Under the pieces are notes generated by a model. That model saw only the letters and a program-made list of their open reading frames with translations. It did no database searches and had not been told where the DNA came from. Position numbers and translations under genes: made by a program. From the IMG/VR virus record IMGVR_UViG_3300045391_003027: a DNA stretch of 40,012 bases. One strand, written 5' to 3'. Below, piece after piece: positions 6,701 to 38,180 of this stretch (positions are counted from its first letter, which is position 1; each line of letters begins with the position of its first letter). The stretch comes from a virus.

Positions 6701-6884
6701 CACGGTGAGCGACGTCTTCCGCGGAGACGGGCAGATAGTTGGGATCTTCGTCGAGCAGCCGCGCGGCGTCGCTTGCGGCAACGGTGACGATATTGCCTCG
6801 CCGATCGCGCAGGAACGCCTGGTCTCCTCGGGTATAAACCGGGCCGACCGTGGTCTGCTCGTAGCGTGGAGTCTCACCCGCCAT
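3783..6884 (-). CDS. Large internal-virion or DNA-ejection-like protein (1033 aa)
   Basis: It is Ala/Glu/Arg-rich with long predicted helices. A Gly/Ala-rich hydrophobic stretch (...MGWGALIGGGASLGLGAAGAGLVGA...) is present. Its position, third of three large proteins between the nozzle-like gene and the fibres, matches podovirus core proteins. Confidence 0.45.
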   Translation of the reverse strand: MAGETPRYEQTTVGPVYTRGDQAFLRDRRGNIVTVAASDAARLLDEDPNYLPVSAEDVAHRDVEIARSTLPEKAKAFAESAAAGAIDVPLIPVRAGLRTGQAIARRAVGDVPAGSVVNPDTLTGRAAVEGLVSGAMGERDEAKAAELDEQYRQAAAGRREANPLTAGAGTIAGQLPWAMVGPGAAVGEATAGMGLGARLAAQTAAGAVEGAAFGESQATDDAYIEDKPLTAEKLMASMGWGALIGGGASLGLGAAGAGLVGAKGAASRALGREAVSDEAAAAFSAAAKREAPTAAVTDATEARVAEAADSAGLNPAARRAAAQEEAAKVVQEAKAAAPTDWRAFTKEATPEAQYIHRDTVLNAASEETAKDLTGVLDRQRPIYDEIDNLQVKRGKIAEHLAADGVDETAVIGRAQEETAALRQRLDEMRAAVQARQSELATAGEAGPVQAKGKPKVSSAEKALRDIDAMVRDHEGRILAAENGADAIAEYDSMRRELAKKWRTARASAGSTSSYEGRALLEPVRDFAQAEYQRAASALMDEGFVGAKQAAAQKAVNNARVGSINGERFDLRPFVTQVGSDEGADFGGRVFMGNQDSIRAMLSGLGDGGGGTRAGQFSRFVDSQEATLRAIKENYALSAGGAQKLDEALASLQKMRESVSSATDAANAVNRAKARIEADQIGGGFLAKLAASTAVGASTEGVSGAAKGFARGLLGGAAPTLELQQRLASMSAESKLAAWLEGKIAKVSGTAGKGAAVVNRTAANIDAKVADSLDGFFDRLTARAQRVGEAARKPIALGRFAAAPSALKLFQGDNPNPQDAYRKRTEQLLVMNQNLGQGVRDRTTTAMGGISETAPRLTQHVAVAASRGVNYLLSHTPVPLRQPTVMQPGYRPVPSDLEIAQFAKRWAAVADPLTVLDDFQKGMVTYEQVDALKNVYPTLYQSIRVEALQRFAKLDAAGIPVPYQERLQADLMFDLNGAGDPTLDAGFALKVSGMMQASAHKVAQPHPSKRPANVAKSMASESQSIGATLRGAPA

Positions 6885-8835
6885 AGGGGGTCACCTTCAC
6901 GGGCGCGGCGGCGCCCTTGCGCTCACGGTTGACGCCGCGGCTGCGGCGCTCGTATTCGCCACGCGCCTCATCCGGATACGTTGCGTCGGTGTCGCGCTCG
7001 ACGTCGTTCAGAGAGCCAACTGCGCGCTGCAAACCACGCACGGCCGCGGCGTCGTCCTCGCCCAGCAAGTAGGAATTGATGTATTCCGCCTGCTGCGGCG
7101 AAACGCTTGCGCCCGAGAGTGCCTTGCCCGTCTGTGCGGCGGCTTTCGCTCGCGCCTCTTGCACACGGTGCGCGCCTTGGCGATCGAGACTCGGTCGACC
7201 CACACCGGGGATGTCCTCGCCGCTACCGGTGAAAGTGAAGTCGTCAGCGTTGACGGGTTTGCCGGTGCGCTTGTCGACCAACACGCCCTTGGCCCAGTCC
7301 GCCCGGAGCCCGTAGGCGTCGGCCAGGTCGGAGAGCGACGAGCGGGAATCCGCAAACGCCTGCTTCTGCTTGCCGTACTCCTCTACGAATTTGAGCCGGT
7401 CTTTGGGCTCCATTTCGCCAAAGTCCTGCGCCTGGTCTTTCGGCAGCAGCTTGGCGCGCGCCGCGTACTCCTCAGGCGACAATGGCCGCTCGACGTATCC
7501 GGCGCCGGTGGCGGCCTTGGGCTGCACAAAAGCCTGCTGCTGCGACCGCGTTTGCTTGCCGATGCTGGCGTTGTAGAGCGCCTGCTCGTTCTGGATGACC
7601 TGCTGCTGGGTGAGGGCGTTGAATTTTCGCGCCTCGACCTGGTACTGCGGCAGCTTCGACTCGTTTGCGAACATCTGCGCCTGCAGGTCGGCGCTCTTGT
7701 TCATGGCGATGCGCAGCGCCGCCTCCGACTGCTGCAGGTCATAGCCATAGTTGTCCATCATCTGCGCCAGCTTGTTGCGGCGCGATACTCGCCCAGCCTC
7801 GATTTCGTCGCGCTGAGCGGCGATGTCTCGATCAATGGCCTTTTGCGTGATCTCGAACGCGAAGTTTGGGGCGCCGGTTTTGGTCGATGCGTATGCACCG
7901 AGCCCCTGCGCGATGGCTAGGCCAATCGTCGCGAATAGACCACGGTCGTGGAAGTAGCGGTCGGGGTCCACATGCGCCGTCTTCTCATAGTGGTCGAGGT
8001 CATCCTGCAACCGCGCACGGTCGACGTGATAGCTCGACACCATGCGGTTGTGGTTGTCCTGCGCCGTCGCTGCGGCTTGCTCGAGCTTGGGCGCCAGCGC
8101 GCGCTGTGAAGCCAGCTGATTGCGCGTCTGCTGCTCCTCGAGCGCCATCCCCTCGAGCTGCGCGTCCCTCACTTCCTTGGCGGCGCCGATGCGCTCGCGG
8201 GCTTGCGCAGGGTCGTAGGGCGCGCCGCTCTCCGTCACTGTGTTGGCGCCGGTTGGCACCATAACGCCTTGCGCGATCATCTTGTGCGGATCGACGCCGG
8301 GGGAACCCGGCGAATAGACACGCTTCGTGCCACGCAAAATGTCCTCAGCGGCGCGCTGCCCCATCGCGCTCCGCGCTGCCGTGGCCGTGTCGCCAGGCCC
8401 CTGCGGCGGCACCGCCGGACCCTGCGGATCGCGCGCGATCGAGGCGGGCACACCCGCTGGAATGGTGCCGGTGGCGTTGGCGACCGCATCGTTGGCGCGC
8501 GCCACGATTTCGGAATCGCGGGCATCCGCGCGCGCGCCGGGCGTGTCTGCCCAGAAAGCCGCGTTCTGATCGGCAAGGCGTTGCCCCGCGTGATAGATGT
8601 CCGGCTTCTGGTAGACCGGTCCCGTGGGCACTTCTGGCGGTCGCGCTAGCATCGGCGGCGGCGAATTCATCGCGAGGCGCTGGTCGGGGGCGGCGTCGAT
8701 GGCGCCCTTGGTTTTGCTGATGCGCGCAGCCAGGTCCGGCTCGTAGGCGTACTGGCTCGCACCCGAGTCGAAGTGGAACACGCCCGCGCCATCGGGCGCG
8801 TCGGGGTCCTGCTCGAAACGAACCAGCTCGGCCAT
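6874..8835 (-). CDS. Internal-virion or ejection-like protein (653 aa) with one hydrophobic segment
   Basis: High-GC3 ORF with Gln/Ala-rich coiled-coil-like regions. It has a TM-like segment, LFATIGLAIAQGLGAYA. Its start is coupled by 1 nt to the upstream stop (TGATG). Confidence 0.45.
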   Translation of the reverse strand: MAELVRFEQDPDAPDGAGVFHFDSGASQYAYEPDLAARISKTKGAIDAAPDQRLAMNSPPPMLARPPEVPTGPVYQKPDIYHAGQRLADQNAAFWADTPGARADARDSEIVARANDAVANATGTIPAGVPASIARDPQGPAVPPQGPGDTATAARSAMGQRAAEDILRGTKRVYSPGSPGVDPHKMIAQGVMVPTGANTVTESGAPYDPAQARERIGAAKEVRDAQLEGMALEEQQTRNQLASQRALAPKLEQAAATAQDNHNRMVSSYHVDRARLQDDLDHYEKTAHVDPDRYFHDRGLFATIGLAIAQGLGAYASTKTGAPNFAFEITQKAIDRDIAAQRDEIEAGRVSRRNKLAQMMDNYGYDLQQSEAALRIAMNKSADLQAQMFANESKLPQYQVEARKFNALTQQQVIQNEQALYNASIGKQTRSQQQAFVQPKAATGAGYVERPLSPEEYAARAKLLPKDQAQDFGEMEPKDRLKFVEEYGKQKQAFADSRSSLSDLADAYGLRADWAKGVLVDKRTGKPVNADDFTFTGSGEDIPGVGRPSLDRQGAHRVQEARAKAAAQTGKALSGASVSPQQAEYINSYLLGEDDAAAVRGLQRAVGSLNDVERDTDATYPDEARGEYERRSRGVNRERKGAAAPVKVTPYGG

Positions 8836-22578: not shown

Positions 22579-22600
22579 CTGTCAAGATAGGACTTGACAG
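22579..22600. promoter_or_regulatory. 22-bp palindrome CTGTCAAG-ATAGGA-CTTGACAG in the portal/terminase divergent gap
   Basis: Perfect 8-bp arms place a consensus TTGACA hexamer on both strands (plus 22594-22599, minus 22585-22580). It lies in the 47-bp gap between divergent genes. The downstream -10 elements are weak. Confidence 0.35.
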
Positions 22601-24162
22601 TGGATTCGCGGCTCATCCTTGGCGAACTCCGGCGGCGGCTGGCGCAGCAACCGGGCGACGGTTGGACTGCGGCCAAGCTCATCAAGCTCTGCCACCCGAA
22701 ACAGGCCGCGTTCGTGGGAGACAAGAGTAGGCGCAAGGCCGCACTGTGCTCCCGCCGCGCCGGCAAGAGCTTCGGCCTACTGGTGTGGTTCATTGTGGGA
22801 GCCATCACCGATCCGGGTGGATTGTCGGTGTTCATTTGCCGCACCAAAGGCGACGCGCGTCGCATCCTCGAGCCAGCGGTGATGGAGCTGCGCGAGCGCA
22901 CCGGGATGGCGCTGCCGTTCTACGAGCGCGATGGCCAACTCATGCTCGGGCTGCCCGGGCGTCACCAGCTGTGGCTGGCTGGCTGCAAAGACCAAAGCGA
23001 GGTCGGCAAGTTCCGCGGCGCCGGCAAGGGCTACCGCCGCGCTGCGGTCGACGAGGCACAGGAATTCGCCGATGACGTGCTGCGCAAGCTGGTTCTAGGC
23101 GCGCTCGAGCCGGCGCTGCTCGACAAGCACGGCGACCTGGCCATCACCGGCACGCCTGGACCGATTCCGGCGGGGCTTTTCCACGAAATCACCACTGGAG
23201 AAGGCGGCACGAAGTGGCCAACGCACGCCTGGACGATTCACGACAACCCCCACATTCAGGACGCGGAAGCCGAGCTCGCCGCCTACCTGAAACAGTACGG
23301 GCTCACGCCAGACGCGCCCGTGTTCATCCGCGAGTGGCGCGGTTTGTGGGTCTACGACGCTTCGGCGCTCGTGTACCCGTTCGTGGGCGACAAGAATGCC
23401 TGCAAGGCCGACGAGATCCCGACCGAGGGCGCGGCGTGGGTGCTCGGTATCGACCTCGGCTCGAGTTCAGCCACGGCGTTCGTGCTCGGCTGCATCGTGC
23501 CGGGACAGGCACACGTCTACATCGTCAGCGCCGCCAAGCATGAGAATTGGATACCGTCGCGCATCGCGGCAGAGGTCGAACGCTACCGCAAGGCGACGCC
23601 AGGCCTGCGCGTAGTGGTCGACGAGGGCGGCCTGGGGCGCGGCTACGCGCAGGAGATGCGCGAGCGCTACGGTATTCCGTGTGAGGCGGCCGAGAAAACC
23701 AAGAAACGCGGCTTCCAAGAGATTGTGGCCGGCGAGCTCCGCAGCGCGACCATCAAGATCGAAGCGTGGGCGTGCCGTGAGCTGCTCGACGAAATGAGCA
23801 TTCTGCAGTGGTTGCCGGACCGCTCCGAGGAGGACTCGGCCCGCTTCGCGAACCACGCCTGCGACGCGTTCTTGTATTGCGTGCGGGCGCTCCGCAGCGG
23901 CTACAACCCGCAGCTTGAGCCGCCCAAGCCCGGCACCCCCGAATGGTGGGCGCAGCAGCGGGAGAAAGAGCGCGCGGCCGCCAGGGACCGCGGGCGAAAG
24001 CGCCAGCGCGGATTCAAGCGGGTGGCGCTGCGCGAAGCTTTGCCCGGAGTCGTCGAATTGATGCCGCTAGCTTTCCGCGATGCGCAGCCGGCGTCACGTA
24101 CCCGGTTTCACGCCGCCAGCGCTGGACACCAACCAGAAACTCCAGCTCTTCTTGCGGCGTAA
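22594..24162 (+). CDS. terL: Terminase large subunit
   Basis: Walker A-like CSRRAGKSF, Walker B-like AAVDEAQEF and a downstream nuclease-type region are present. Start is TTG at 22594, or GTG at 22600 preceded by AGGA with a 7-nt spacer. It is the only plus-strand gene between two minus-strand blocks. Confidence 0.75.
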   Translation: MTVDSRLILGELRRRLAQQPGDGWTAAKLIKLCHPKQAAFVGDKSRRKAALCSRRAGKSFGLLVWFIVGAITDPGGLSVFICRTKGDARRILEPAVMELRERTGMALPFYERDGQLMLGLPGRHQLWLAGCKDQSEVGKFRGAGKGYRRAAVDEAQEFADDVLRKLVLGALEPALLDKHGDLAITGTPGPIPAGLFHEITTGEGGTKWPTHAWTIHDNPHIQDAEAELAAYLKQYGLTPDAPVFIREWRGLWVYDASALVYPFVGDKNACKADEIPTEGAAWVLGIDLGSSSATAFVLGCIVPGQAHVYIVSAAKHENWIPSRIAAEVERYRKATPGLRVVVDEGGLGRGYAQEMRERYGIPCEAAEKTKKRGFQEIVAGELRSATIKIEAWACRELLDEMSILQWLPDRSEEDSARFANHACDAFLYCVRALRSGYNPQLEPPKPGTPEWWAQQREKERAAARDRGRKRQRGFKRVALREALPGVVELMPLAFRDAQPASRTRFHAASAGHQPETPALLAA

Positions 24163-25308: not shown

Positions 25309-25397
25309 TCTGCCGTGACCCCCATCACCACGCCAACGACAGCGCCGATGGCGAAGCCGGCCATAAATGCGATCAGGCAGGCGTCAAATAGGTTCAC
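25305..25397 (-). CDS. Possible 30-aa single-pass membrane peptide
   Basis: GTG at 25397-25395 overlaps the GroES-like stop as GTGA. My translation is VNLFDACLIAFMAGFAIGAVVGVVMGVTAE. Its stop overlaps the next ATG as ATGA. It is too short for the ORF track. Confidence 0.3.
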   Translation of the reverse strand: MNLFDACLIAFMAGFAIGAVVGVVMGVTAE

Positions 25398-25945
25398 CGG
25401 CGCTGCTCCCCGTAGTCGAGCTCGAGCGCCTCGTACTCGGGACGCTGGTCCGGCAACTCGAACAGAATCTCGTCGGCGCGCACCATGCGGTATTCGCCAC
25501 CGGGACGCTCGTGCTTGGTGGGCACGGGGAAGCTCTCCCAGCTGCAACCGCGGGGATTCGTGCGGGGCTTGGCCACATCCAGCGACCAGTCCTGCCCCGC
25601 GCGCTCGTCGACTACCACGCACATGCCGGGCTCCACCTCCGTCGGCACGAGCGGGCCGCGACCGTCGCGCAACCGCCAACCGGGACCCGTGGCGAGCACG
25701 ATGGCCTCGCGCACGCCATTGGCCTTGCCTTGGCGGTTCGCCGGCAGCACGAGCAGGCTCCCGCTCATGCGTTCGGGCCGCGGCTTGAGATACAGCAGCA
25801 CATTGTCGTCGAGCGGGCGGATGCGGCTCGGGTGGCTATCGCCAGCAGCAGGCTGGTCGCCGGCCAGCATATCGAATAGCGGCGGAATGGTCGGAGCAGG
25901 TGGTGCCTCGCTCGGGCTCGGTAGCTCGATTGCTGGCTTGCTCAT
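25394..25945 (-). CDS. GroES/Cpn10-like co-chaperonin with a Pro-rich N-terminal extension and an internal insertion (183 aa)
   Basis: The sequence aligns by eye to GroES. IRPLDDNVLL fits IRPLxDRVLV. SGSLLVLP fits the mobile-loop AGGIVL. REAIVLATGPG fits GEVxAVGxG. EVEPGMCVVVDE fits DVKVGDxVxF. YRMVRADEILFEL fits the C-terminal strand. Confidence 0.6.
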   Translation of the reverse strand: MSKPAIELPSPSEAPPAPTIPPLFDMLAGDQPAAGDSHPSRIRPLDDNVLLYLKPRPERMSGSLLVLPANRQGKANGVREAIVLATGPGWRLRDGRGPLVPTEVEPGMCVVVDERAGQDWSLDVAKPRTNPRGCSWESFPVPTKHERPGGEYRMVRADEILFELPDQRPEYEALELDYGEQRR

Positions 25946-26000
25946 GGTGACACCTCATGATCGCGCGCGCGGGTAAAGGTACGATTTGGACGAATGCACA

Positions 26001-26322
26001 TCACTTTTCTCCTCTCGAGTCTTGGTCACTTCCTGGAAAGCCTCTGAGATCGCGCGGTGTCTGAATGCCGCTGATGCACCACTGCAAACGCGAACGATTG
26101 GCCTTCGCCAGCCCCCGCCGGCCGCATTCGCGATGCAACTTGGTCAAGCCCTGCGCCCGACAGAACGCCCGTAGCCGCGTTTCGCTCGTGCCCAGCTGAT
26201 AGACAGCCTTGCGCAGCGCGCGTTTCGCTCGTGCCCAGCTGATAGACAGCCTTGCGCAGCGTCGGCGCCTCGCGCAGCACGTCGGCGACGTGTGTGGGTT
26301 CGAGCACGACGTAGGCCTTCAT
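26001..26322 (-). pseudogene. Small gene frameshifted by a 43-bp tandem duplication
   Basis: ATG at 26322-26320 overlaps the upstream stop as ATGA. The reading frame MKAYVVLEPTHVADVLREAPTLRKAVYQLGTSETR is then shifted +1 by the second repeat copy. Deleting one copy gives a 92-aa ORF ending at 26001 (...RLRAFCRAQGLTKLHRECGRRGLAKANRSRLQWCISGIQTPRDL...) with better GC3. Confidence 0.5.
26177..26262. repeat. Tandem duplication, 2 x 43 bp (gcgtttcgctcgtgcccagctgatagacagccttgcgcagcg + c/t)
   Basis: Copies at 26177-26219 and 26220-26262 match at 42 of 43 positions. The unit length is not a multiple of 3. Confidence 0.9.
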
Positions 26323-26645
26323 GCCGCATGCCTCCCGCCGCGGGTCGGTTGGTCGCGCTCGTCGAGCCGCTTGGCGCGCTCGGCCTCCCACCGTGCGTCG
26401 ACCGCCGAGCGCCCGTAACGCTCGTGCAGCAGGTCGCGGAAGCGCCCGACGTGCACCGCGCGCTCGGCGGCGGAAAGCGGCTTGCGGTCATTCTCGCGCT
26501 GCTCCGCGTGCGCCTCCAGGCGCGCGTTGAACCGCTGCCACTCGAGAAACAGCTGGTTGTTCAGGCGCTCCCAGGCTTCGCCGTGGCCCTTGTCGGCGGC
26601 CTCCGGCGCGTAGGCTGCGGGGTCCCAATCCTCATCGTAAACCAT
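26319..26645 (-). CDS. Hypothetical 108-aa protein
   Basis: ATG at 26645, 2 nt after the upstream TAG. Charged, helical-looking sequence. Confidence 0.45.
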   Translation of the reverse strand: MVYDEDWDPAAYAPEAADKGHGEAWERLNNQLFLEWQRFNARLEAHAEQRENDRKPLSAAERAVHVGRFRDLLHERYGRSAVDARWEAERAKRLDERDQPTRGGRHAA

Positions 26646-26647
26646 GG

Positions 26648-27619
26648 CTATTTCGTGCCTCCGATTGCTTGGGCCTCACGCATCAGCGCCATCGCCTTGG
26701 CGCCAGCTTCCTTGGCCGATTTGGCGGCGCGGCTTTGCCTGCCGCCCGTTTGCGCGTCGTGCTCCAGCTCGCCGATTGGCTTGAGCTTTCCCGGGGTTTC
26801 GCACTTAAACTTCAGGTCAGCGCGAAGCTTTCGGAACCAATTCGCATCCCGGCGGCCCATGCCGCCTCCGATGGTCCAATGCGTCACGAATTCCCGGGTT
26901 CCAGCGCGGATTTGCTCCGGCTCGACGCCGTACCGCTCCACGAAATCACGCACAATGCCCACGGATTCTGCCTTTTCGAGCAGATCCAGCGGACAGGTTG
27001 TGAGCTTCGTCTCCGTTGCCGCAGGCTCTGAATCGGCCGGGGTGGCGGTTGGCGCGCGCCCCTGCGCGCGGTCTCCCACCAGCACGGCTGGATTGGCTGG
27101 TACAGCACGGCTGAGCACAGAGTGACCAGTTGTGACGTGCTGTGACTGCGCGTGACTCTTGGTCACGCCTTGTGACCCGTCGTCACGTTCCGTGACAAGC
27201 TCATCCAGGAGAGAACCGGCCCGGTGCGCCGCCGCCCTTCTTGCTCGGCTCTCTCGCTGGCGCTGGGCATCGCTCTGCGTTGCCTCCTGCGCCCGGATGA
27301 AGTTGGGCACGAAAAGTACCCTGTCGTGCACGGTGACCACGCCGCGCTCTAGGAGCTTCGCGACGCCCGTGCGTGCGTGCTCCAAGGGTAGGTCGGCGAG
27401 CGCCGCCAGTGCCTCTGCGGGCTCCAGGCCCTCGAGTTCTAAGATGCCTGCCCGGTCCACCTCGAGCAGGAGGGCGTGCAGACACATTCGCCCGTCCCAC
27501 CCCAGCAGCTTCGTGGTGACCGTTTTGCGCGTGTAGATGCGCACGTAGCGTTCGTCTTCGAAGTTCAGGCCGCCCTCCGTCGCACCTTGCCGCGCACCCG
27601 CTTCGGCGGGGTCTGCCAA
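26648..27619 (-). CDS. Replication initiator or replisome-organiser-like protein (winged-helix N-terminal domain)
   Basis: ...FEDERYVRIYTRKTVTTKLLGWDGRMCLHALLLEVDRAGILEL...VAKLLERGVV resembles phage replisome-organiser N-terminal domains. The C-terminal ...EFVTHWTIGGGMGRRDANWFRKLRADL resembles Rep-type tails. The start is uncertain: the TTG at 27619 overlaps ruvC by 55 nt. Confidence 0.45.
   Translation of the reverse strand: MADPAEAGARQGATEGGLNFEDERYVRIYTRKTVTTKLLGWDGRMCLHALLLEVDRAGILELEGLEPAEALAALADLPLEHARTGVAKLLERGVVTVHDRVLFVPNFIRAQEATQSDAQRQRESRARRAAAHRAGSLLDELVTERDDGSQGVTKSHAQSQHVTTGHSVLSRAVPANPAVLVGDRAQGRAPTATPADSEPAATETKLTTCPLDLLEKAESVGIVRDFVERYGVEPEQIRAGTREFVTHWTIGGGMGRRDANWFRKLRADLKFKCETPGKLKPIGELEHDAQTGGRQSRAAKSAKEAGAKAMALMREAQAIGGTK
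27122..27196. repeat. Eight GTGAC/GTCAC (GTSAC) pentamers at exact 10-bp phasing; candidate iteron or origin array inside the replication gene
   Basis: Pentamers start at 27122, 27132, 27142, 27152, 27162, 27172, 27182 and 27192. A 10-bp period is not a codon multiple. An 11-bp direct repeat, cagcacggctg, lies alongside at 27080 and 27103. Confidence 0.6.
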
Positions 27620-28125
27620 AGCAGGTGATGCAGGTGCGGAATGCCGTGCCCGTCCAGCACCGCGTTCACGGTGCAGAAGGCGTCGGCCTGGTCGGCGTCG
27701 TCGAAGTCCCCACCCACGGTGCGCAGGGCCTCGACGACGTATTTCTTTGGGTCACCCGGCGGCTTGGCACCGAGCATCAACTTTCGCGCGTGCGCGAGAT
27801 TGACAAACTGCAGGTCGAGCCCAGCTTGGTCGAGCAGCTCGAGACGGAGCACACCGCGGAGCTCGGCGAGCGGCACCGTGCTGAACGCGCGCTGTGGCGG
27901 CAGATCTTCGGCCACCACATGCGTCGCGCCAACACGGATCAGCCACGTGCGCACGTCGCGCGCGATGTCACGGAGTCGACCCGTCACCTCGCGCGTGCTC
28001 GCGCCCTTGTGGAGTGGGACCCCGAAGCTCGTGCGCTCAACGCGCGCAAAGTCGAGGTCCCACCCTGAGGGCACAGCTACGGCGCCGAAGCCCGTGAGGC
28101 TGATATCCAGGCCGCCGATGATCAC
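27565..28125 (-). CDS. ruvC: RuvC-like Holliday-junction resolvase (186 aa)
   Basis: I re-set the start to the GTG at 28125-28123, which overlaps the upstream stop as GTGA. VIIGGLDISLTGFGAV fits the RuvC N-terminal Asp motif, and ...DDADQADAFC fits the C-terminal acidic motif. Confidence 0.6.
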   Translation of the reverse strand: MIIGGLDISLTGFGAVAVPSGWDLDFARVERTSFGVPLHKGASTREVTGRLRDIARDVRTWLIRVGATHVVAEDLPPQRAFSTVPLAELRGVLRLELLDQAGLDLQFVNLAHARKLMLGAKPPGDPKKYVVEALRTVGGDFDDADQADAFCTVNAVLDGHGIPHLHHLLWQTPPKRVRGKVRRRAA

Positions 28126-28946
28126 GCCTGCGCGCTCGCCCCGGCAGTGGCCTTGGGTTTGCGCGGCTTGCGCTTCTTTTCTGTCGGCAGAGGCGTCGCC
28201 TTGTCCGTGACGTCTTTCGCCACCTCGTCGCTGAGCGCCTTGGCCTGAGCCGCCGCGTCTTTCTTGCCGTTCGGCGCCTTCAGCTCGAGCTCCAGCTGTT
28301 TCTCGCGCTCGGTCATGGCGCGCTCGGTGAGCAGCTCGTTCGTATCGGTGCGCCGCTCCTCGACGGTGCCGGTCTTGTAGAGGTAGTTGCGCACGCACGG
28401 CACGTCGCGATAGGCGGCGCCATCGCGCACCTCGAGGGAGAGGCGATGCATCTCGGACGCCAGCTCCTCGATGTGCGCGTTCGCTTGCTTCTTCGCGGCG
28501 TCGCGCTCGGTCTCTTTCTGCTGGATCTCACCGAGCAGGAAGGCGCTGCGCTTTGCGCGCTCGACCACCTCATCGTTCTTCAGCACCACGCGCAGATTTC
28601 GCGTGAATTTCTCGGTCTTCACGTCCTTCGGATCAGTCTTTTTCGCAGCCATTGCGTCCCTTTCTGCCTCCGCCAACAAGCGCTCGGCGTCCGCGATGGA
28701 CTCCGGGCCAGAATGCTTTTTTGCTATCGTGAGCAGCTCGCGCGCGACCCGGTGGCGCTTGCGCACCAGCTGCAAACACGCCGGGCACGTGACGCGGGAA
28801 ACATCGCTCGTGCCACCCTCACCCACGGTCACGGTGAGCTTGCGGCATTCGCTCGGCCACTTGCGCGACCAGTGCGTGACTGGCGTCGTCGCACGGCTCG
28901 CTCGGCGCGCGTCAGGGTCGGCGGCCGCGACTACCGAGGCCAGCAC
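28122..28946 (-). CDS. Hypothetical coiled-coil protein with a Lys-rich C-terminal tail (start uncertain)
   Basis: GC3 in this frame becomes high only from about 28950 downward. The candidate GTG is at 28946. Product contains ...CPACLQLVRKRH..., long helices and ...PTEKKRKPRKPK. The ORF-track N-terminus (28947-29135) looks like a shadow of the zinc-ribbon frame. Confidence 0.4.
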   Translation of the reverse strand: MLASVVAAADPDARRASRATTPVTHWSRKWPSECRKLTVTVGEGGTSDVSRVTCPACLQLVRKRHRVARELLTIAKKHSGPESIADAERLLAEAERDAMAAKKTDPKDVKTEKFTRNLRVVLKNDEVVERAKRSAFLLGEIQQKETERDAAKKQANAHIEELASEMHRLSLEVRDGAAYRDVPCVRNYLYKTGTVEERRTDTNELLTERAMTEREKQLELELKAPNGKKDAAAQAKALSDEVAKDVTDKATPLPTEKKRKPRKPKATAGASAQA

Positions 28947-29145
28947 GCCGGAGCCGGTACGCGAGCCTACAGGCGTTGCATCGGTTATCGAGCCCGCCTT
29001 GGCCCTTGTTGTGCGGCGAGAAGCACTCGAGCGGCCACCACTCGCCGCCGGGGCAGGATTCGCAGAATTTGGCTCGCCCCCACCAGAAAAGGCGGAAGCG
29101 CGAGGCGCCGTAGTGGAGGACTGGGCGCGGCTCATCCGGCTCCAT
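28912..29145 (-). CDS. Small zinc-ribbon protein (about 77 aa)
   Basis: Very high GC3. Motif: FCESCPGGEWWPLECFSPHNKGQGGLDNRCNACRLAY (CxxC...CxxC). Start is ATG at 29145 or TTG at 29184. Confidence 0.5.
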   Translation of the reverse strand: MEPDEPRPVLHYGASRFRLFWWGRAKFCESCPGGEWWPLECFSPHNKGQGGLDNRCNACRLAYRLRRAGLGSRGRRP

Positions 29146-29353
29146 CCCCGCCCTCGTCAGCCCGGATACCGAGCTGCTCGTCAAGCACCGTCAGCGACCG
29201 TTCGAGGAGCGAACGCGCGCGGCTCAGTTGCGCCCGTGATTCCTCCAGCGCCTCGTGCGTGTTGGCGAGCGTGACACGCAGTCGCTCAAGCTCCTGAGAC
29301 GAATCGGGCGCCGTCGCGATGGCACAGCCGCAGCTGGGACAGGCGTCAGCCAC
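29132..29353 (-). CDS. Hypothetical 73-aa protein (CxxC plus coiled coil)
   Basis: GTG start at 29353. Product: ADACPSCGCAIA... followed by heptad-like ...LERLRVTLANTHEALEESRAQLSRARSLLERSL. Confidence 0.4.
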   Translation of the reverse strand: MADACPSCGCAIATAPDSSQELERLRVTLANTHEALEESRAQLSRARSLLERSLTVLDEQLGIRADEGGDGAG

Positions 29354-29573
29354 GGCGCCCCTCCGCGTTGTCGGCCAGCTCGATCATGTCTTGGCCGAGC
29401 TCGCGCGCCATATCCGGCGGCATGACCAGCTTGATCTGGTCGCACAGGAATTCGACCCGGCCGTCCACCACCTGCAGCACGACGGCGAGCCCAGCGTGAG
29501 CCCGCGTCGGTGGCACAGCTGCGCCACCTGAGGCCGCCGGCCGACGGAACGGCAGCACGATGCCGTCGCTCAC
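29346..29573 (-). CDS. Hypothetical 75-aa protein, first gene downstream of the attP region
   Basis: GTG at 29573 is preceded by AGGAGA with a 7-nt spacer. The RBS abuts the 18-bp palindromic repeat. Confidence 0.4.
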   Translation of the reverse strand: MSDGIVLPFRRPAASGGAAVPPTRAHAGLAVVLQVVDGRVEFLCDQIKLVMPPDMARELGQDMIELADNAEGRRG

Positions 29574-29739: not shown

Positions 29740-29779
29740 AAAAAACCGCCTGATCCGAAGTCAGGCGGTTTTTCTTTTG
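29740..29779. terminator. Bidirectional intrinsic terminator
   Basis: Perfect 10-bp stem, AACCGCCTGA (29744-53) with TCAGGCGGTT (29761-70), and a 7-nt loop. An A-run lies upstream and tttcttttg downstream, so a U-tract follows on both strands. The integrase TGA lies inside the stem. Confidence 0.7.
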
Positions 29780-30933
29780 GAACGCTTTTTCTGGGGGTCC
29801 CCCAGATCCACCGTCGCCAGCGCCGCCCGAAAGGACGGCTTCACGTAGCGGGACGTGGTGCTCAGCAGCTTGTGCCCCACCCGGTACTGGATACCCACGA
29901 TGCTCTTGCCCTGCTCGAGCTCGTGCGTCGTAAAGGCCGACCGTAGGTGTGACCCCGCAAACCGCTTGGCCGCCTCGCCCTTCAGCACCGCCGTGGCCGC
30001 CGCCTTGATGTGCGGCCGGTAGTCGTGCCAACCGAATATCAGCCCAGCGTCCGGACACACGGCGTCGAGGGCCGCCCTGGCCTTGCGCGTTAGGGGCACG
30101 TCGCGCGCCCAGCGCGCCTTGTCGATGTCCGCCGTGATGCGCAGCACCGGCGAGCCCTTGGCGTAGTGCTCGGGCACGCTGAGCTTGTCGAGCGTTGCGG
30201 GCCGGAGCCCAGTCTCGTAGCCCACCACGAAGCGCGCCCGGATCGGGAACAGCTTGGCCTTGTATGTTCGCTTGCGCGCCAGGTCGCGCCGTGGCGGCCC
30301 CTTCCGCCCGCCCCACTCCGGCAGCTTGGCGATGATGCGCAGCGTCTCCTGGGGGGAGATTGCGTCGGCCGCGGTACGGCGCCGGACGGGGTGCGCCTTG
30401 CCCGTCACGTTCTTGGGCACGCCGGCAATCGGAAATGCCGCCGGCAGCGCGCCAATTTCCTCGAGGGCACAAAACGACACCAGATTGCGGAGCGCGGTGA
30501 GCTCGTGTCGCACGGTCGACGCCAGCACCTTGCCAAGGCGCCGCCGCCGATACTCCGCGCAGCCCGCCTCGGTCAGCTTCTCGACCGACCCAAAGAACGG
30601 CACGAAATGCGAGCGCGCGTAGTCCCGCCAAACGTCCCGCGTTGGCTCCGCGTGCGTGGTTGTCAGCCATTCTTGCCATGCGCTTACGAGATCCTCGAGT
30701 GCAGGTGCACCACCGACGCGAGGTGCACGTTTGGCGATTCGGAGCTCTCCAGCTCGAGCAGCGGCGACGAGGCGCGCGGCCTCTGCGTTAGCTTTGCCCT
30801 CGTCTCTTGTGCCCGTGGACCGCTCAGTAGTGCGACCATCAGCGGTGAAGCGGGCGCGCCAGTTTTCGTTGGGCGAGTTGCGGGTGAGCGTCCAGGCTTG
30901 GTTTTTCCGTCGCTTGAGAGTGATTCTGCCCAT
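29761..30933 (-). CDS. int: Tyrosine integrase (site-specific recombinase), 390 aa
   Basis: ETGLRPATL supplies the first catalytic Arg, HLRSAFTTH the H-x-x-R motif and GHKLLSTTSRYV the His and Tyr. The N-terminal arm-type domain is MGRITLKRRKNQAW...RFTADGRTTERSTG. I took the ATG at 30933; the ORF-track start is the TTG at 31035. Confidence 0.8.
   Translation of the reverse strand: MGRITLKRRKNQAWTLTRNSPNENWRARFTADGRTTERSTGTRDEGKANAEAARLVAAARAGELRIAKRAPRVGGAPALEDLVSAWQEWLTTTHAEPTRDVWRDYARSHFVPFFGSVEKLTEAGCAEYRRRRLGKVLASTVRHELTALRNLVSFCALEEIGALPAAFPIAGVPKNVTGKAHPVRRRTAADAISPQETLRIIAKLPEWGGRKGPPRRDLARKRTYKAKLFPIRARFVVGYETGLRPATLDKLSVPEHYAKGSPVLRITADIDKARWARDVPLTRKARAALDAVCPDAGLIFGWHDYRPHIKAAATAVLKGEAAKRFAGSHLRSAFTTHELEQGKSIVGIQYRVGHKLLSTTSRYVKPSFRAALATVDLGDPQKKRSKRKTA
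29791..29808. repeat. 18-bp repeat ctgggggtcccccagatc, copy 2 (inside the integrase 3' end)
   Basis: Identical to 29585-29602. On the minus strand it encodes ...DLGDPQ... of the integrase tail. Confidence 0.85.
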
Positions 30934-31070
30934 GCGTCGAGATCCGATTCGAGGAACAGCACGCGCCGACCAATCTTCTTTGGCGTGAGCGCAGGTCGCA
31001 CGTGCGCGTCGAATGCCGCGACCGAGCACCGGCAACGTTCGGCCGCTTCGCGTTTCGTCAAGAGCCTCAC
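30684..31070 (-). CDS. Excisionase/AlpA-like HTH protein; the ORF runs 250 nt into the integrase gene in another frame
   Basis: GTG at 31070 overlaps the upstream stop as GTGA. (V)RLLTKREAAERCRCSVAAFDAHVRPALTPKKIGRRVLFLESDLDAWAESL is a typical MerR-type or Xis HTH_17 pattern. No stop occurs until 30684. Confidence 0.5.
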   Translation of the reverse strand: MRLLTKREAAERCRCSVAAFDAHVRPALTPKKIGRRVLFLESDLDAWAESLSSDGKTKPGRSPATRPTKTGAPASPLMVALLSGPRAQETRAKLTQRPRASSPLLELESSESPNVHLASVVHLHSRIS

Positions 31071-35122: not shown

Positions 35123-35392
35123 ATGTCTGCTGCGAAACAGATCGCTACCGAAACCGATGCGGCGACGCCCGCCGCGATCAGCCGCGAGGCGCGCGCCCAT
35201 CTGCGCGCCGTGTTCTACGACACCGTGCAAGCGCTCGCGGCGCTCGATTCTGGCGACCACTGCGGCGCCGACAACGCGCTCAAGGCCGCCATGCTGGCCG
35301 CCGCGGACGCGCGCGCTGCGCTGCAGCCGCTGCTCGCGCCGCTGTCACCCAAGGCCCAAGTCGACGCCTCACTCAAGGAGTGGCTCACATGA
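35123..35392 (+). CDS. Hypothetical 89-aa Ala-rich helical protein
   Basis: ATG at 35123 is preceded by AAGGAGGGA. Confidence 0.5.
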   Translation: MSAAKQIATETDAATPAAISREARAHLRAVFYDTVQALAALDSGDHCGADNALKAAMLAAADARAALQPLLAPLSPKAQVDASLKEWLT

Positions 35393-36846
35393 AAGACATT
35401 GTTCTCATCGATCACGGCAGCGTCTACTGGGCTGCCTGGCACTCCAGCGTGCACGAGGAGGTCAGCGCCGCGCATGACCGGTGCGTCGCCCACGTCCGCA
35501 AGATTGCCGGAAACACGAAGGCGGTCGCCATCTGCTGCGATTCGCCCAAAAGCAACCGCCGCGCGAAGTTCCCGGAATACAAGGCCAATCGCCCGGAGAA
35601 AGACCACGCGGCTATCGAGCAGCTGCAGCGCACGAAAGAGACCCTGCGCCGCGACGGCTTCCTGCTCTGGGAGGTCGAGGGCTACGAGGCCGACGACGTG
35701 ATCGCCAGCGCCGTCAAGCTCGCACTCGCCGACCCCGAAAACGGAATCACCGTGTGCACCGCCGACAAAGACCTGATGCAGCTCGTCGGTCCGCGCGTCA
35801 TCTGGGAGAGCACCCGCGTAGACCTGCAGTTGCAGGTGCTGGGCGTCCAAGAAAAGCTCGGCGTGCCGCCTGCCATGGTGCGCGACTGGCTCGCCCTCGT
35901 CGGCGACAAGTCCGACAACGTGCCGGGCGTGCCGGGGATCGGTCCCGTCAAGGCCGCGGCACTGCTGAACGAGTTCGGCAACATCGAGACGATTCTCGAG
36001 CGTGTTCAGAAAAACGTCACGCACAAGCTCTTTAGCCCGGCCATTGCCGCCGCTTTCTACGATGCGCAGAACCTGAAGAATCTGGCCATCGCGCGTGAGC
36101 TGGTGACCCTCGTCGACACGCTGCCGGTAAACTTTGACGAGATCTTCGAGGAGCGCGCATCTCAACCGCTGGTCGCGCCAACCGGGGAGTTTGACGATGA
36201 GCCGGCTCCCGCGTCGGCGCCGGTGCCCACCCCTGCTCCCCAACAGACGCCCGAGCCGCGCACCGAGCTTGTCGTCGCGCCACAGCAGCCGGCGCCTGTC
36301 ACGACTTTGGCGCCCGCGCAAAGCTCCGCTCCTTCTGCGCCGGCCCTCTCTGCATACGAGCAGCAGCTGCAGCCGCAGACGCTGAAAGCGGCCTCGATCT
36401 TGGCGGAGACGCTTTTCAATTCGCGGCTGTACCAAAAGCTCGGCAACAAAGAGGCGATCTTCGCGGTCATCCTGCGCGGGCGCGAGATGGGGCTGACCGC
36501 GCTCACCTCGCTCGACATGTTCCACGTCGTCGAGGGCAGGCCGACCATGACGGCGCACATGCTCATCTCCCGTGCGAAGCAACACCCCGACTGCAAGTAC
36601 TTCCGCTACATCGGCGGTGACGACACGTACGCGGAGTACGAGACATGGAACCGGCTCAATCCCGAGCCGACGCGGCTCAAGTACACCATCGAGCAAGCGA
36701 AGCGCGCAGGTGTCGTCAAGGCCGGTTCGAATTGGGAAAAGCGCCCCGCCGAGATGTTGCGCAAAACGTGCGGCGTGCAGCTCGCACGTATCGAATACCC
36801 CGAGGCCTTGGGTGGCCTCTACGCACAAGAGGAGCTCGCGGCCTGA
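35389..36846 (+). CDS. Fusion protein: N-terminal FEN / Pol I-type 5'-3' exonuclease, then a Pro/Ala/Gln linker, then a C-terminal RecT-like single-strand annealing domain (485 aa)
   Basis: ATG at 35389 overlaps the upstream stop as ATGA. The exonuclease motifs are LIDHGS, FPEYKANRPEK, GYEADDVIAS, TADKDLMQLV and GDKSDNVPGVPGIGPVKAA (H3TH). The C-terminus ...GLTALTSLDMFHVVEGRPTMTAHMLISRA...GSNWEKRPAEMLRKTCGVQLARIEYPEALGGLYAQEEL fits the RecT pattern W...P.EML.K....L.R...P. Confidence 0.65.
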   Translation: MKDIVLIDHGSVYWAAWHSSVHEEVSAAHDRCVAHVRKIAGNTKAVAICCDSPKSNRRAKFPEYKANRPEKDHAAIEQLQRTKETLRRDGFLLWEVEGYEADDVIASAVKLALADPENGITVCTADKDLMQLVGPRVIWESTRVDLQLQVLGVQEKLGVPPAMVRDWLALVGDKSDNVPGVPGIGPVKAAALLNEFGNIETILERVQKNVTHKLFSPAIAAAFYDAQNLKNLAIARELVTLVDTLPVNFDEIFEERASQPLVAPTGEFDDEPAPASAPVPTPAPQQTPEPRTELVVAPQQPAPVTTLAPAQSSAPSAPALSAYEQQLQPQTLKAASILAETLFNSRLYQKLGNKEAIFAVILRGREMGLTALTSLDMFHVVEGRPTMTAHMLISRAKQHPDCKYFRYIGGDDTYAEYETWNRLNPEPTRLKYTIEQAKRAGVVKAGSNWEKRPAEMLRKTCGVQLARIEYPEALGGLYAQEELAA

Positions 36847-38180
36847 TGGCAAAGAAGAAGCTTACGAAACTCACCGAGGCACAAGAGGCGCGCGTTGCGA
36901 CGTGGCGCGCGGAGTGGCTGACTCACGGCTGCTGTACCGAACGAGCGGACCGCCCGCGCGCGCAGGCCGCCATCACGGCCATGTACGAGGCAATCGGCGA
37001 GAAGGCGCCGGTGTACCTCTGGTTCGATTCGCCCATGTCGGCGTCGCTCGCCGCGGGGCTCCTGCTCTCGCTCAAGGCGAAGAAACCGCTGCGCGATCAG
37101 CTCGTCAGCCAGCTCGACAGCCAGCTCGACAGCCAGCTCGTCAGCCAGCTCGACAGCCAGCTCGACAGCCAGCTCGTCAGCCAGCTCGACAGCCAGCTCG
37201 ACAGCCAGCTCGGCAGCCAGCTCTACAGCCAGCTCGGCAGCCAGCTCGGCAGCCAGCTCGGCAGCCAGCTCTACAGCCAGCTCGACAGCCAGCTCGACAG
37301 CCAGCTCGGCAGCCAGCTCGGCAGCCAGCTCGGCAGCCAGCTCTACAGCCAGCTCGTCAGCCAGCTCGACAGCCAGCTCTACAGCCAGCTCTACAGCCAG
37401 CTCGGCAGCCAGCTCGTCAGCCAGCTCGACAGCCAGCTCTACAGCCAGCTCGGCAGCCAGCTCGGCAGCCAGCTCGACAGCCAGCTCTACAGCCAGCTGC
37501 GAGAAGATCTCAGAAGCCACGCGCGAAGCGCGGCGACCAACACGATGGCCACCAGTTGGCGCTACGGCTGGGTCGCGTTCTACAGCTTCCTGCAGGACGT
37601 TTTGGGCTTGGAGGCAGACGCCGAGGTGTTGCGGCGCCTCGGGCTTTGGAAGGAGCTCCTGCAGTCGTCCTTCTGGTTCATTCCGTACCAGGGAATGTGC
37701 TTCGTGAGCGATCGCCCGTCGGCCATCCATTGGGACGAGCGCGCGCGGCTGCATCACCCGTCCGAGGCCGCCGTGCAGTTCCGCGACGGCTACCGCTTGT
37801 TCATGTGGCACGGGACGCGAGTGCCCGAGCAATGGATTACGGCGCCCCAAAGCATCGACGTCACGGCCGCGTTGACTTGGGAAAATATCGAGGAGCGACG
37901 CGCGGCGGCCGAAATCATCGGTTGGCGCAAGGTGCGCGAGACTCTGATGGTCGAGGGCAAGGCGCGCATCATCGACGCCGACCCCGACCCCTACATCGGC
38001 ACGCTCTACGAAGTGGACTTGCCCGACTCGCCAGGCGAGAAGTTCTTGGACGTGCGCTGCGGCACAGGGCGCGACTTCACGCTGCCGGTGGACCCGAAGT
38101 CAAAGACGGCACTTGAGGCCAACGCCCGCACGTACCGGCTCAAGCCGAGCGAATACAAGAAACTCGAGGCGCGAACCTAG
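36846..38180 (+). CDS. Three-part protein (444 aa): an 84-aa N-terminal domain, a (Q-L-x-S)x33 tetrapeptide-repeat tract, and a roughly 225-aa C-terminal domain (possibly DUF6745-like)
   Basis: The ATG shares 1 nt with the upstream TGA. Only this frame gives sensible flanking domains. The C-terminal part ...VSDRPSAIHWDERARLHHPSEAAVQFRDGYRLFMWHGTRVP...WENIEERRAAAEIIGW...GTLYEV...ART matches a conserved family as I recall it. Confidence 0.6.
   Translation: MAKKKLTKLTEAQEARVATWRAEWLTHGCCTERADRPRAQAAITAMYEAIGEKAPVYLWFDSPMSASLAAGLLLSLKAKKPLRDQLVSQLDSQLDSQLVSQLDSQLDSQLVSQLDSQLDSQLGSQLYSQLGSQLGSQLGSQLYSQLDSQLDSQLGSQLGSQLGSQLYSQLVSQLDSQLYSQLYSQLGSQLVSQLDSQLYSQLGSQLGSQLDSQLYSQLREDLRSHARSAATNTMATSWRYGWVAFYSFLQDVLGLEADAEVLRRLGLWKELLQSSFWFIPYQGMCFVSDRPSAIHWDERARLHHPSEAAVQFRDGYRLFMWHGTRVPEQWITAPQSIDVTAALTWENIEERRAAAEIIGWRKVRETLMVEGKARIIDADPDPYIGTLYEVDLPDSPGEKFLDVRCGTGRDFTLPVDPKSKTALEANARTYRLKPSEYKKLEART
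37098..37499 (+). repeat. Tandem 12-bp repeat array, about 33 units of CAGCTC-NNC-AGC
   Basis: By my manual count there are 33 full units plus a terminal CAGCTG. Nine of the 12 nt are invariant in every unit. The variable codon is GAC, GGC, GTC or TAC (D x11, G x10, V x5, Y x7). Confidence 0.9.

Follow-up and report, generated by a model that had tools for sequence, protein, structure and literature searches.

Replication origins that lie inside the gene of their own initiator are the closest described parallel to the locus presented here. RepA_N plasmids of the pSK41 and pAD1 type encode an initiator with a winged-helix N-domain and a host-specific C-domain, and their iterons lie in the central, poorly conserved part of the gene. 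DnaA-trios, found in bacterial oriC, repeat with a period of 3 nt. The origin of phage lambda consists of iterons and an AT-rich region inside the O gene (PMC7466680), while oriL of phage SPP1 combines direct repeats with an unwinding element inside gene 38 (PMC6316719). The SV40 initiator recognises bare pentanucleotides (GAGGC) arranged in inverted pairs (PMC1779811), and Rep proteins bind one strand of the DUE, the DNA unwinding element (PMC4081077). For almost all uncultured phages origins are unknown, and a simple DNA signature that marks a candidate origin together with its initiator is described here. The signature was studied in the viral record IMGVR_UViG_3300045391_003027, a stretch of 40,012 nt referred to in full as the window, where the minus-strand gene at 26648-27619 encodes a protein of predicted replication-initiator type and contains eight GTSAC pentamers (GTGAC or GTCAC) placed exactly 10 bp apart. 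We estimate a probability of about 0.72 that this array is the replication origin of the phage, bound by the product of the gene in which it lies.

The gene and the elements within it are arranged as follows, the minus strand being the coding strand.

26648-27619, minus strand: initiator-type gene, 323 amino acids (aa) as called (open reading frame (ORF) list, identical Joint Genome Institute (JGI) protein P0001, homologue alignment)
27290-27532, minus strand: predicted winged-helix N-domain, aa 30-110 (AlphaFold2 predicted local distance difference test (pLDDT) >90; helix-strand-helix-helix-strand-strand)
27212-27283, minus strand: conserved basic helix, aa 113-136 (..QSDAQRQRESRARR..), candidate DNA-reading element (alignment, model)
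27122-27196, unstranded: eight GTSAC pentamers exactly 10 bp apart, candidate initiator-binding sites (iterons) (codon resampling and family conservation)
27182-27196, unstranded: inverted pair 1, coding strand GTCAC-GGAAC-GTGAC
27162-27176, unstranded: inverted pair 2, coding strand GTCAC-AAGGC-GTGAC
27122-27156, minus strand: four direct GTCAC (coding strand), 10 bp apart
27081-27121, minus strand: 5-nt-period array directly after the last GTCAC, candidate unwinding element
27080-27090 and 27103-27113: 11-mers CAGCACGGCTG, inside the 5-nt-period element
27051-27070, unstranded: alternating CG tract (GGCGCGCGC ... GCGCGCG), beyond the 5-nt array
26660-27004, minus strand: predicted helical C-terminal domain, aa 206-320 (pLDDT 90-97)

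Read on the plus strand, GTGAC starts at 27122, 27132, 27142, 27152, 27172 and 27192 and GTCAC at 27162 and 27182, as established from the sequence itself, a pattern search and a repeat finder. The window holds 91 GTSAC pentamers against 84 expected from shuffles, and the pattern search returned no second chain at 10-bp spacing elsewhere in the 40 kb. The array escaped Tandem Repeats Finder, since no more than 5 bases in each 10 repeat. The eight sites cycle through frames 0, 1 and 2 and are translated as VT/RD/SQ/VT/SH/SQ/VT/GH (aa 142-166). When the peptide was held fixed and synonymous codons were redrawn from the window's own codon usage, a chain of eight appeared in 0 of 100,000 draws, and the longest chain obtained had five sites (11 times). 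The window array is unexplained by the protein sequence. The GC content of third codon positions (GC3) is 0.56-0.64 in the linker versus 0.80-0.88 in the N-domain. A sequence-only reading of this DNA had reported the exact 10-bp phasing, had argued that peptide repetition cannot give such a period, had pointed to low-GC3 codons in the linker as a sign of constraint on the DNA and had proposed a codon-shuffled control; the phasing and the codon bias are confirmed, and the resampling, together with the frame and codon statistics of the family given below, bears out the other two arguments. Two of its descriptions hold in part. The eight exact sites do form a series, but one of two site classes rather than of uniform repeats. 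The placement of all sites on one face of the helix is only approximate: the helical repeat of DNA is 10.5 bp per turn, so that a spacing of exactly 10.0 bp leads, by geometry alone, to a drift of about 120 degrees over 70 bp, and the eight sites share one face only if the DNA is overtwisted or wrapped.

The family DNA sample comprised 70 IMG/VR contigs encoding relatives of the protein. GTSAC is enriched 10-20 times in these contigs at the matching gene position, with a density of 2.4-3.8 per 100 bp between +300 and +500 nt of the gene and about 0.2 in the 6-kb flanks. Spacings between neighbouring sites inside the gene are dominated by 10 bp (271 cases), with 11 (19), 20 (27) and 21 bp (27) also represented, and the distribution is flat outside it. 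Each locus carries 4-13 copies, and all chains of at least three sites at exactly 10 bp, which reach up to 13 units, lie inside the initiator gene. Sequence information is confined to the pentamer and the purine that follows it, spacer positions holding <0.25 bit. Among 56 distinct arrays, frames 0, 1 and 2 hold 182, 134 and 108 sites, and codon choice departs strongly from that of the N-domain in the same genes: TCA reaches 54% in arrays against 13% in the N-domain, GGT 50% against 12%, CGT 48% against 8% and TGT 88% against 19%. Array residues in this set vary only as the bases allow, with R/G/S/C followed by D/H, and x-S-R/Q/H/P; the resulting three-frame signature, VT.[RGSC][DH]..S[RQHPL].VT, is present in 124 of the 211 family members examined. 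The array is conserved down to 30-40% N-domain identity and across exchanges of the C-domain. What is conserved among homologues is the set of phased pentamers, whereas the amino acids vary; the sequence-only reading had named the opposite outcome, a conserved peptide with lost phasing, as one that would refute it. The array is selected at the DNA level throughout the family, and the peptide follows the DNA. Pentamers spaced at 10 bp in all three frames of a linker are the signature of a family of some 2,000 clusters, and the locus provides an example of overlapping codes in which the protein sequence of the linker is dictated by candidate DNA-binding sites, even as to which of R, G, S and C is used.

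The array has an internal order. On the coding strand, most homologous loci begin with one to three inverted pairs of the form GTCAC-N5-GTGAC and continue with four to six direct GTCAC. The spacer of the inverted pairs is A-rich, with the consensus GTCAC-[AG]AA[AT]C-GTGAC over 71 distinct pairs, and the spacers of the direct run are GC-rich. In the window the site order is C-G-C-G-C-C-C-C, that is, two pairs followed by four direct sites.

Loci that lack GTSAC carry another pentamer at the matching position with the same 10-bp period (10-11 bp in some lineages). The variant lineages are listed below.

L011: GTTAC/GTAAC (GTWAC), with the 5-nt repeat visible
L021: GTWAC plus GTSAC
L048: GTGTC/GACAC; inverted pairs precede a direct run, and the 5-nt repeat comes last
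L046: GTCCC five times, then (CCAGC)n
L063: GTCCG four times

The full layout with a switched pentamer is clearest in L048 and L011. Residues 116-117 of the protein, within the basic helix, are SD in proteins with GTSAC, SN in those with GTWAC or GACAC and TE in those with GTCCC or GTCCG. In this small sample, the joint change of pentamer and basic helix looks like the pattern expected of an initiator and its own sites, and it points to the basic helix as the probable reading element. The lineages that have switched pentamers offer a small, testable recognition code.

Departures from the common layout were also noted at the level of single loci. In 5 of the 70, three further GTCAC, likewise spaced at exactly 10 bp and in three frames (GH..S..VT), form a mini-array where the gene codes for the N-domain, upstream of the main array by roughly 180-240 bp (L020 4529-4553; L024 and L031 6143-6167; L042 6184-6208; L062 6174-6198), which may be a second binding cluster. 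In some members the N-domain and the array are separated by an additional domain. P0076 has Pfam matches to T5orf172 and MUG113, and an inserted sequence (..YF.QSE.GGPIKIG..), recognised by eye, is common to L030, L044, L055, L057 and P0081. The GTSAC cluster of L030, L044 and L057 is shifted to about +630 to +770 nt with irregular spacing, and L055 has no GTSAC cluster.

Directly after the last GTCAC, nearly every locus carries a second array with a period of 5 nt, such as (CCGTA)x5, (CTCAG)x5 or mixtures of CCTAG and CCGTG. In the window its coding strand reads:

T CTGTG CTCAG CCGTG CTGTA CCAGC CAATC CAGCC GTGCT

Identity at lag 5 averages 0.52 across the family versus 0.265 in controls, and lags 10, 15 and 20 are likewise raised; since all four lags are raised alike, the base period is 5 nt and not the 15 nt of a peptide repeat. 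The window itself has a lag-5 identity of 0.49, a value matched by about 1% of control segments. By nearest-neighbour energies, the 40 bp that follow the last site are the locally least stable DNA (family mean z +1.41 and +1.06). The two 11-bp direct repeats that had been noted beside the pentamers are real, at 27080 and 27103, but they belong to this separate 5-nt-period element and not to the 10-bp array. The element raises the question of how an origin opens in genomes of 65-70% GC without an AT-rich region. Beyond it, CGCGCG and GCGCGC are enriched 5-6 times family-wide at +40 to +80 after the last GTCAC, and such CG-alternating tracts are very stable DNA. Relatives also show a GATC enrichment of about 3 times shortly past the 5-nt array, where the window has none. 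For both the CG tract and GATC enrichments, DNA-level causes and peptide-level causes ('RAR', 'DP') are not separated. Dam-type methyltransferases are encoded in two related contigs, L072 and L073.

To characterize the encoded protein, a structural model was generated with AlphaFold2 using 76 homologues. The model comprises the winged helix, a long basic helix at aa 117-136 that follows it, a segment predicted to be disordered at aa 137-205 (pLDDT <50), which includes the residues coded by the array, and the helical C-terminal domain. In the homologue alignment the basic helix is the best-conserved segment of the family, with A110, Q111, D117, R120 and R125 near-invariant. When the full-length model was searched against the PDB, only generic winged-helix regulators were returned, the RepA N-domain structures 4pql and 5kbj being among the weak matches. 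Fold matches in BFVD, again with the full-length model, include phage replisome organisers, Lin1244-like proteins, DUF1376 and a 'replication initiator' (E 5e-5 to 1e-3), and the matches to replisome organisers range from E 5e-5 to 6e-3. On this model, the protein is of replication-initiator type: a disordered linker joins its winged-helix N-domain to its helical C-domain. The sequence-only reading had named the gene a replication organiser and had placed the repeats in a linker between a winged-helix N-domain and a C-domain; the former is supported by the fold matches and by the PHROG, DnaT and DnaA_N matches of relatives, and the latter agrees with the predicted disorder of aa 137-205. As called, the gene starts with a TTG at 27619, which adds 17 residues found in no homologue, and its 5' end overlaps the end of a RuvC-like gene (27565). 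Most homologues begin with MNFEDERY, which corresponds to LNFEDERY from aa 18 of the window protein, where the codon is CTG (27568-27566), part of a CTGA with the upstream stop; the real start may therefore lie near 27568. The one Pfam match of the window protein, to PqqD, was sub-threshold and gave no annotation.

The protein family is large, and its members share the N-terminal half. With the N-domain as query, 2,580 cluster representatives were retrieved at E<=1e-3, and at E<=1e-10 there were 1,937; in the 150 best matches the domain begins at one of the first ten residues of the protein. At 50% identity the family amounts to about 2,000 protein clusters, and it has no Pfam or NCBIfam model. 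The C-terminal halves, by alignment, are several unrelated, interchangeable modules of helicase-recruitment type. The window's module is common to P0026, P0028, P0029 and P0033; among the 76 homologues, nine have a DnaT-like C-domain and one a DnaA_N-like one; and the module of P0011 recurs in genes annotated 'replication protein O', DUF1376 and 'primosomal protein I' in cultured Vibrio and Xanthomonas phages. A hit to phrog_1408, 'replication initiation protein', was obtained for 22 of the 76 homologues (best E 3.8e-21). Other homologues hit five more replication-initiation PHROGs, families of O-like proteins and one of DnaD-like loaders; the PHROG replication-initiation families considered were phrog_1408, 2447, 1032 and 16167. 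Matches to the 'replication initiation O-like' families arise at least partly via the C-domains. The match of P0003 is co-linear, aa 22-251 aligning to phrog_1408 positions 20-252 of 302, so the shared N-domain is included in it; the best BLASTP segment between P0003 and the window protein is 53% identical. Phage_rep_org_N (PF09681) is matched by one of the 76 homologues (E 6e-4) and not by the window protein, while Phage_rep_O (PF04492) is matched by none of the 76 at E<=0.01 and not by the window protein at E<=0.1. The link of the window protein to Phage_rep_org_N and to the PHROG initiator families is remote and runs via relatives. A tblastn search with the window protein gave no match in 50,697 phage and 72,556 plasmid records; in the cultured-phage collection no relative was found with the window protein or P0003, and P0011 matched through its C-domain only. 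One relative, L073, has an initiator gene with a DnaT-like C-domain and, directly upstream of it (6853-7173), a gene for a 106-aa protein corresponding to the DnaA C-terminal domain (domain IV).

Compared with the systems introduced above, the locus most likely works, by analogy, as do the origins within the genes for lambda O, SPP1 G38P and the RepA_N plasmid initiators. The resemblance to lambda lies in an origin, a candidate one here, in the middle of the gene of its own initiator, with binding-site repeats followed downstream by an easily, or here putatively, opened stretch (PMC7466680), in extra sites that translate into the linker joining a DNA-binding domain at the N-terminus to a recruitment domain at the C-terminus, in inverted repeats that are, or here would be, bound by dimers, and in a repeat number that varies among relatives. 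The in-gene position of the O type fits, given that the candidate sites lie between the N- and C-domain coding parts in the window and likewise in the 70 loci. Lambda, however, carries 19-bp inverted-repeat iterons, four to six of them at intervals of about two turns, and a region that is truly AT-rich, whereas the sites of the window are 5-6 bp long, occur once per turn and fall into two classes, only two 15-bp inverted pairs being present beside four direct sites, and the adjoining stretch is a 5-nt-period repeat of relative instability only. No Phage_rep_O match was obtained here and no P-like gene was recognised. The proposal of a lambda-style origin therefore holds for the layout, which parallels lambda ori and SPP1 oriL, and does not extend to membership of Phage_rep_O by sequence.

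The likeness to SPP1 consists in direct repeats that are, or here would be, bound by the gene's own product and adjoin an unwinding element, a putative one here, within the gene (PMC6316719), to which the fold matches to phage replisome organisers and the single homologue with Phage_rep_org_N may be added; SPP1 differs in the type and length of its repeats and in having its own loader, its own helicase and a second origin copy, oriR, none of which was found here. RepA_N plasmids are plasmids of Gram-positive bacteria with another iteron architecture, and no RepA_N match was obtained in Pfam for the window protein or the 76 homologues, nor by tblastn in the 72,556 plasmids. With SV40 and the polyomaviruses the window shares bare pentanucleotides in inverted pairs, but those are eukaryotic viruses with an unrelated origin-binding fold and four closely packed sites outside the coding region. 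DnaA boxes and DnaA-trios offer an analogy only: duplex sites abut a short-period repeat in the melting region, but the period here is 5 nt, the protein has no AAA+ domain and single-strand binding is purely hypothetical. Traits of the iteron type are the multiple short sites per locus and, in a few lineages, the joint change of site and protein. What sets the locus apart from known systems is a bare pentamer once per turn in place of a 17-22-bp iteron about every two turns, two site classes in a fixed order, a 5-nt repeat in place of an AT-rich region, and the recurrence of this design across a very large family beyond Pfam and NCBIfam models. No paper describing the initiator family or a GTCAC origin was found in the literature.

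As a replication origin, the locus could operate in the following manner. The array would form the origin core, overprinted on the part of the gene that codes for the disordered linker, and the gene's own product would bind these sites by means of the winged helix at its N-terminus together with the adjoining basic helix. Dimers would occupy the two 15-bp inverted pairs (GTCAC-N5-GTGAC), and further protomers would line up head to tail on the four direct GTCAC, one per helical turn. Because the 10.0-bp spacing is shorter than the 10.5-bp helical repeat, the filament is proposed to wrap or twist the DNA. The strain would pass to the adjacent 40-bp stretch of 5-nt period, the locally least stable DNA, which would open, and the variable C-terminal domain would then recruit the helicase-loading machinery of the host. 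Helicase, primase and polymerase genes are absent from the gene tables of L072 and L073, and none was identified among the window ORFs scanned. Binding by the gene's own product, assembly of a filament, opening of the 5-nt array and the firing of an origin are inferred steps.

Several observations weigh against an origin at this position. The putative unwinding stretch is only relatively unstable (-1.50 versus a window mean of -1.62 kcal/mol/step), falls outside the least stable 1% of window positions and is not strongly AT-rich. DnaA boxes (TTATCCACA, up to 2 mismatches) are absent from 26600-27700 and show no enrichment in the family. No helicase-loader gene is recognised downstream, where the ORF at 26319-26645 encodes a 108-aa protein that matches nothing in Pfam or PHROG, and no loader gene is present in L072 or L073. 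At E<=0.1 for Pfam and PHROG, the window protein itself has no match in either, nor any NCBIfam or PDB sequence-family match, so that only its relatives match; and the link between pentamer and basic helix comes from only about five variant lineages. The cumulative GC skew peaks at about 24-26 kb and not at 27.1 kb. Since this maximum coincides with a switch in gene orientation, GC skew was set aside as uninformative as an independent origin signal.

A more detailed proposal, of which we regard the joint truth of all parts as rather doubtful, is a previously undescribed two-part origin design in a very large family of high-GC, probably myxobacterial phages. Its first part would be an initiator filament on bare pentamers, nucleated at the inverted pairs and extended along the direct repeats. 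The basic helix would be the main reader, with a simple specificity code at residues 116-117 (SD, SN, TE). Strain or single-strand contacts would be transmitted to the abutting 5-nt repeat as an analogue of the DnaA-trios, and this repeat would unwind GC-rich DNA without an AT-rich stretch, all of these elements being overprinted on a coding linker.

Other functions for the array were weighed against the same observations. The conservation at the DNA level and the changes of pentamer indicate a cognate protein-binding array, and not specifically an origin; the gene product or another phage protein might therefore coat it as an operator or roadblock, autoregulating the initiator operon or the copy number. 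Initiators commonly autoregulate, and the lack of DnaA boxes and of a strongly AT-rich stretch would suit such a role. Operators, however, normally overlap promoters, and no sigma-70-like promoter was found in 25800-29400, a scan that also yielded no internal promoter or terminator. The array lies about 400 nt inside the gene at a fixed linker position, which agrees with the in-gene origins of lambda O and SPP1 G38P (PMC7466680, PMC6316719), and it is coupled to a 5-nt-period element of low stability that would be of no use to an operator. We consider an operator improbable on this evidence. A different DNA transaction, with the array as a recognition site for packaging, a centromere for partition or an accessory element in recombination or excision, is less probable still. 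The binder would then be the terminase, a ParB-like protein or an excisionase-like winged-helix protein placed once per turn as in P2 Cox. P2 Cox, 186 Apl and plasmid centromeres (parC) do use short tandem repeats at a spacing of about one turn; genes for an integrase (29761-31035) and a terminase (22594-24162) are present in the window, and a ParB_N gene lies near the initiator gene in one relative (L072). Packaging sites, by comparison, are usually in or beside the small terminase gene and excision sites beside attP, whereas this array is tied to the initiator gene in at least 70 contigs, regardless of which genes surround it, and the pentamer varies together with the protein's own basic helix. 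Between the two gene tables, ParB_N occurs in L072 and not in L073; the window was not searched for it.

Action at the level of RNA or single strands is very unlikely. The two inverted pairs (GTCAC-N5-GTGAC) could form hairpins with 7-base-pair stems, or the mRNA could present an array to an RNA-binding protein, but the region folds no better than shuffled sequences (z -1.4 as single-stranded DNA and -0.3 as RNA), has no Rfam match and includes a direct run that cannot pair, and spacings of 10, 11, 20 and 21 are a property of duplex DNA. The possibility to which we attach the least weight, and which is scarcely credible, is that the array is a neutral by-product of a low-complexity linker with decapeptide or slippage repeats and no selection on the DNA. 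The region does code for a linker predicted to be disordered (pLDDT <50) in which VT recurs every 10 aa. Periods of 10 and 5 nt, however, are not multiples of 3; three frames are used, rare codons are forced and the amino acids vary, with conservation reaching down to 30-40% N-domain identity and across C-domain swaps. A peptide-repeat explanation was accordingly rejected by the codon resampling and the frame and codon statistics. An origin bound by its own initiator remains the reading that we prefer.

The window represents a temperate phage of about 40 kb, with genes for a portal, a terminase, a tail spike, an integrase and a RuvC-like resolvase. A genome profile search returned one Kofleriaceae (Myxococcota) metagenome-assembled genome only, which makes the host assignment weak; the host group is probably the myxobacteria. 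The segment 27040-27210 together with the gene is a possible minimal replicon for these bacteria. The ORF at 35380-36846 (488 aa) has an exonuclease match at aa 3-258 and a RecT-like annealing match at aa 334-486 and overlaps the ORF at 36645-38180 by about 200 nt; this is a fusion of exonuclease and annealase or else a frameshift or a problem of ORF calling. Both the window (25394-25945) and L073 (9646-10011) carry, as a conserved neighbour, a GroES/Cpn10-like gene in the interval from the replication gene to the terminase. Between the window's GroES-like gene and the 108-aa ORF of the initiator operon, a perfect 43-bp tandem duplication occupies 26176-26261 (2.0 copies, 100% identity); it may have arisen by recent duplication or as an artefact of assembly, or it may serve as a regulatory repeat.

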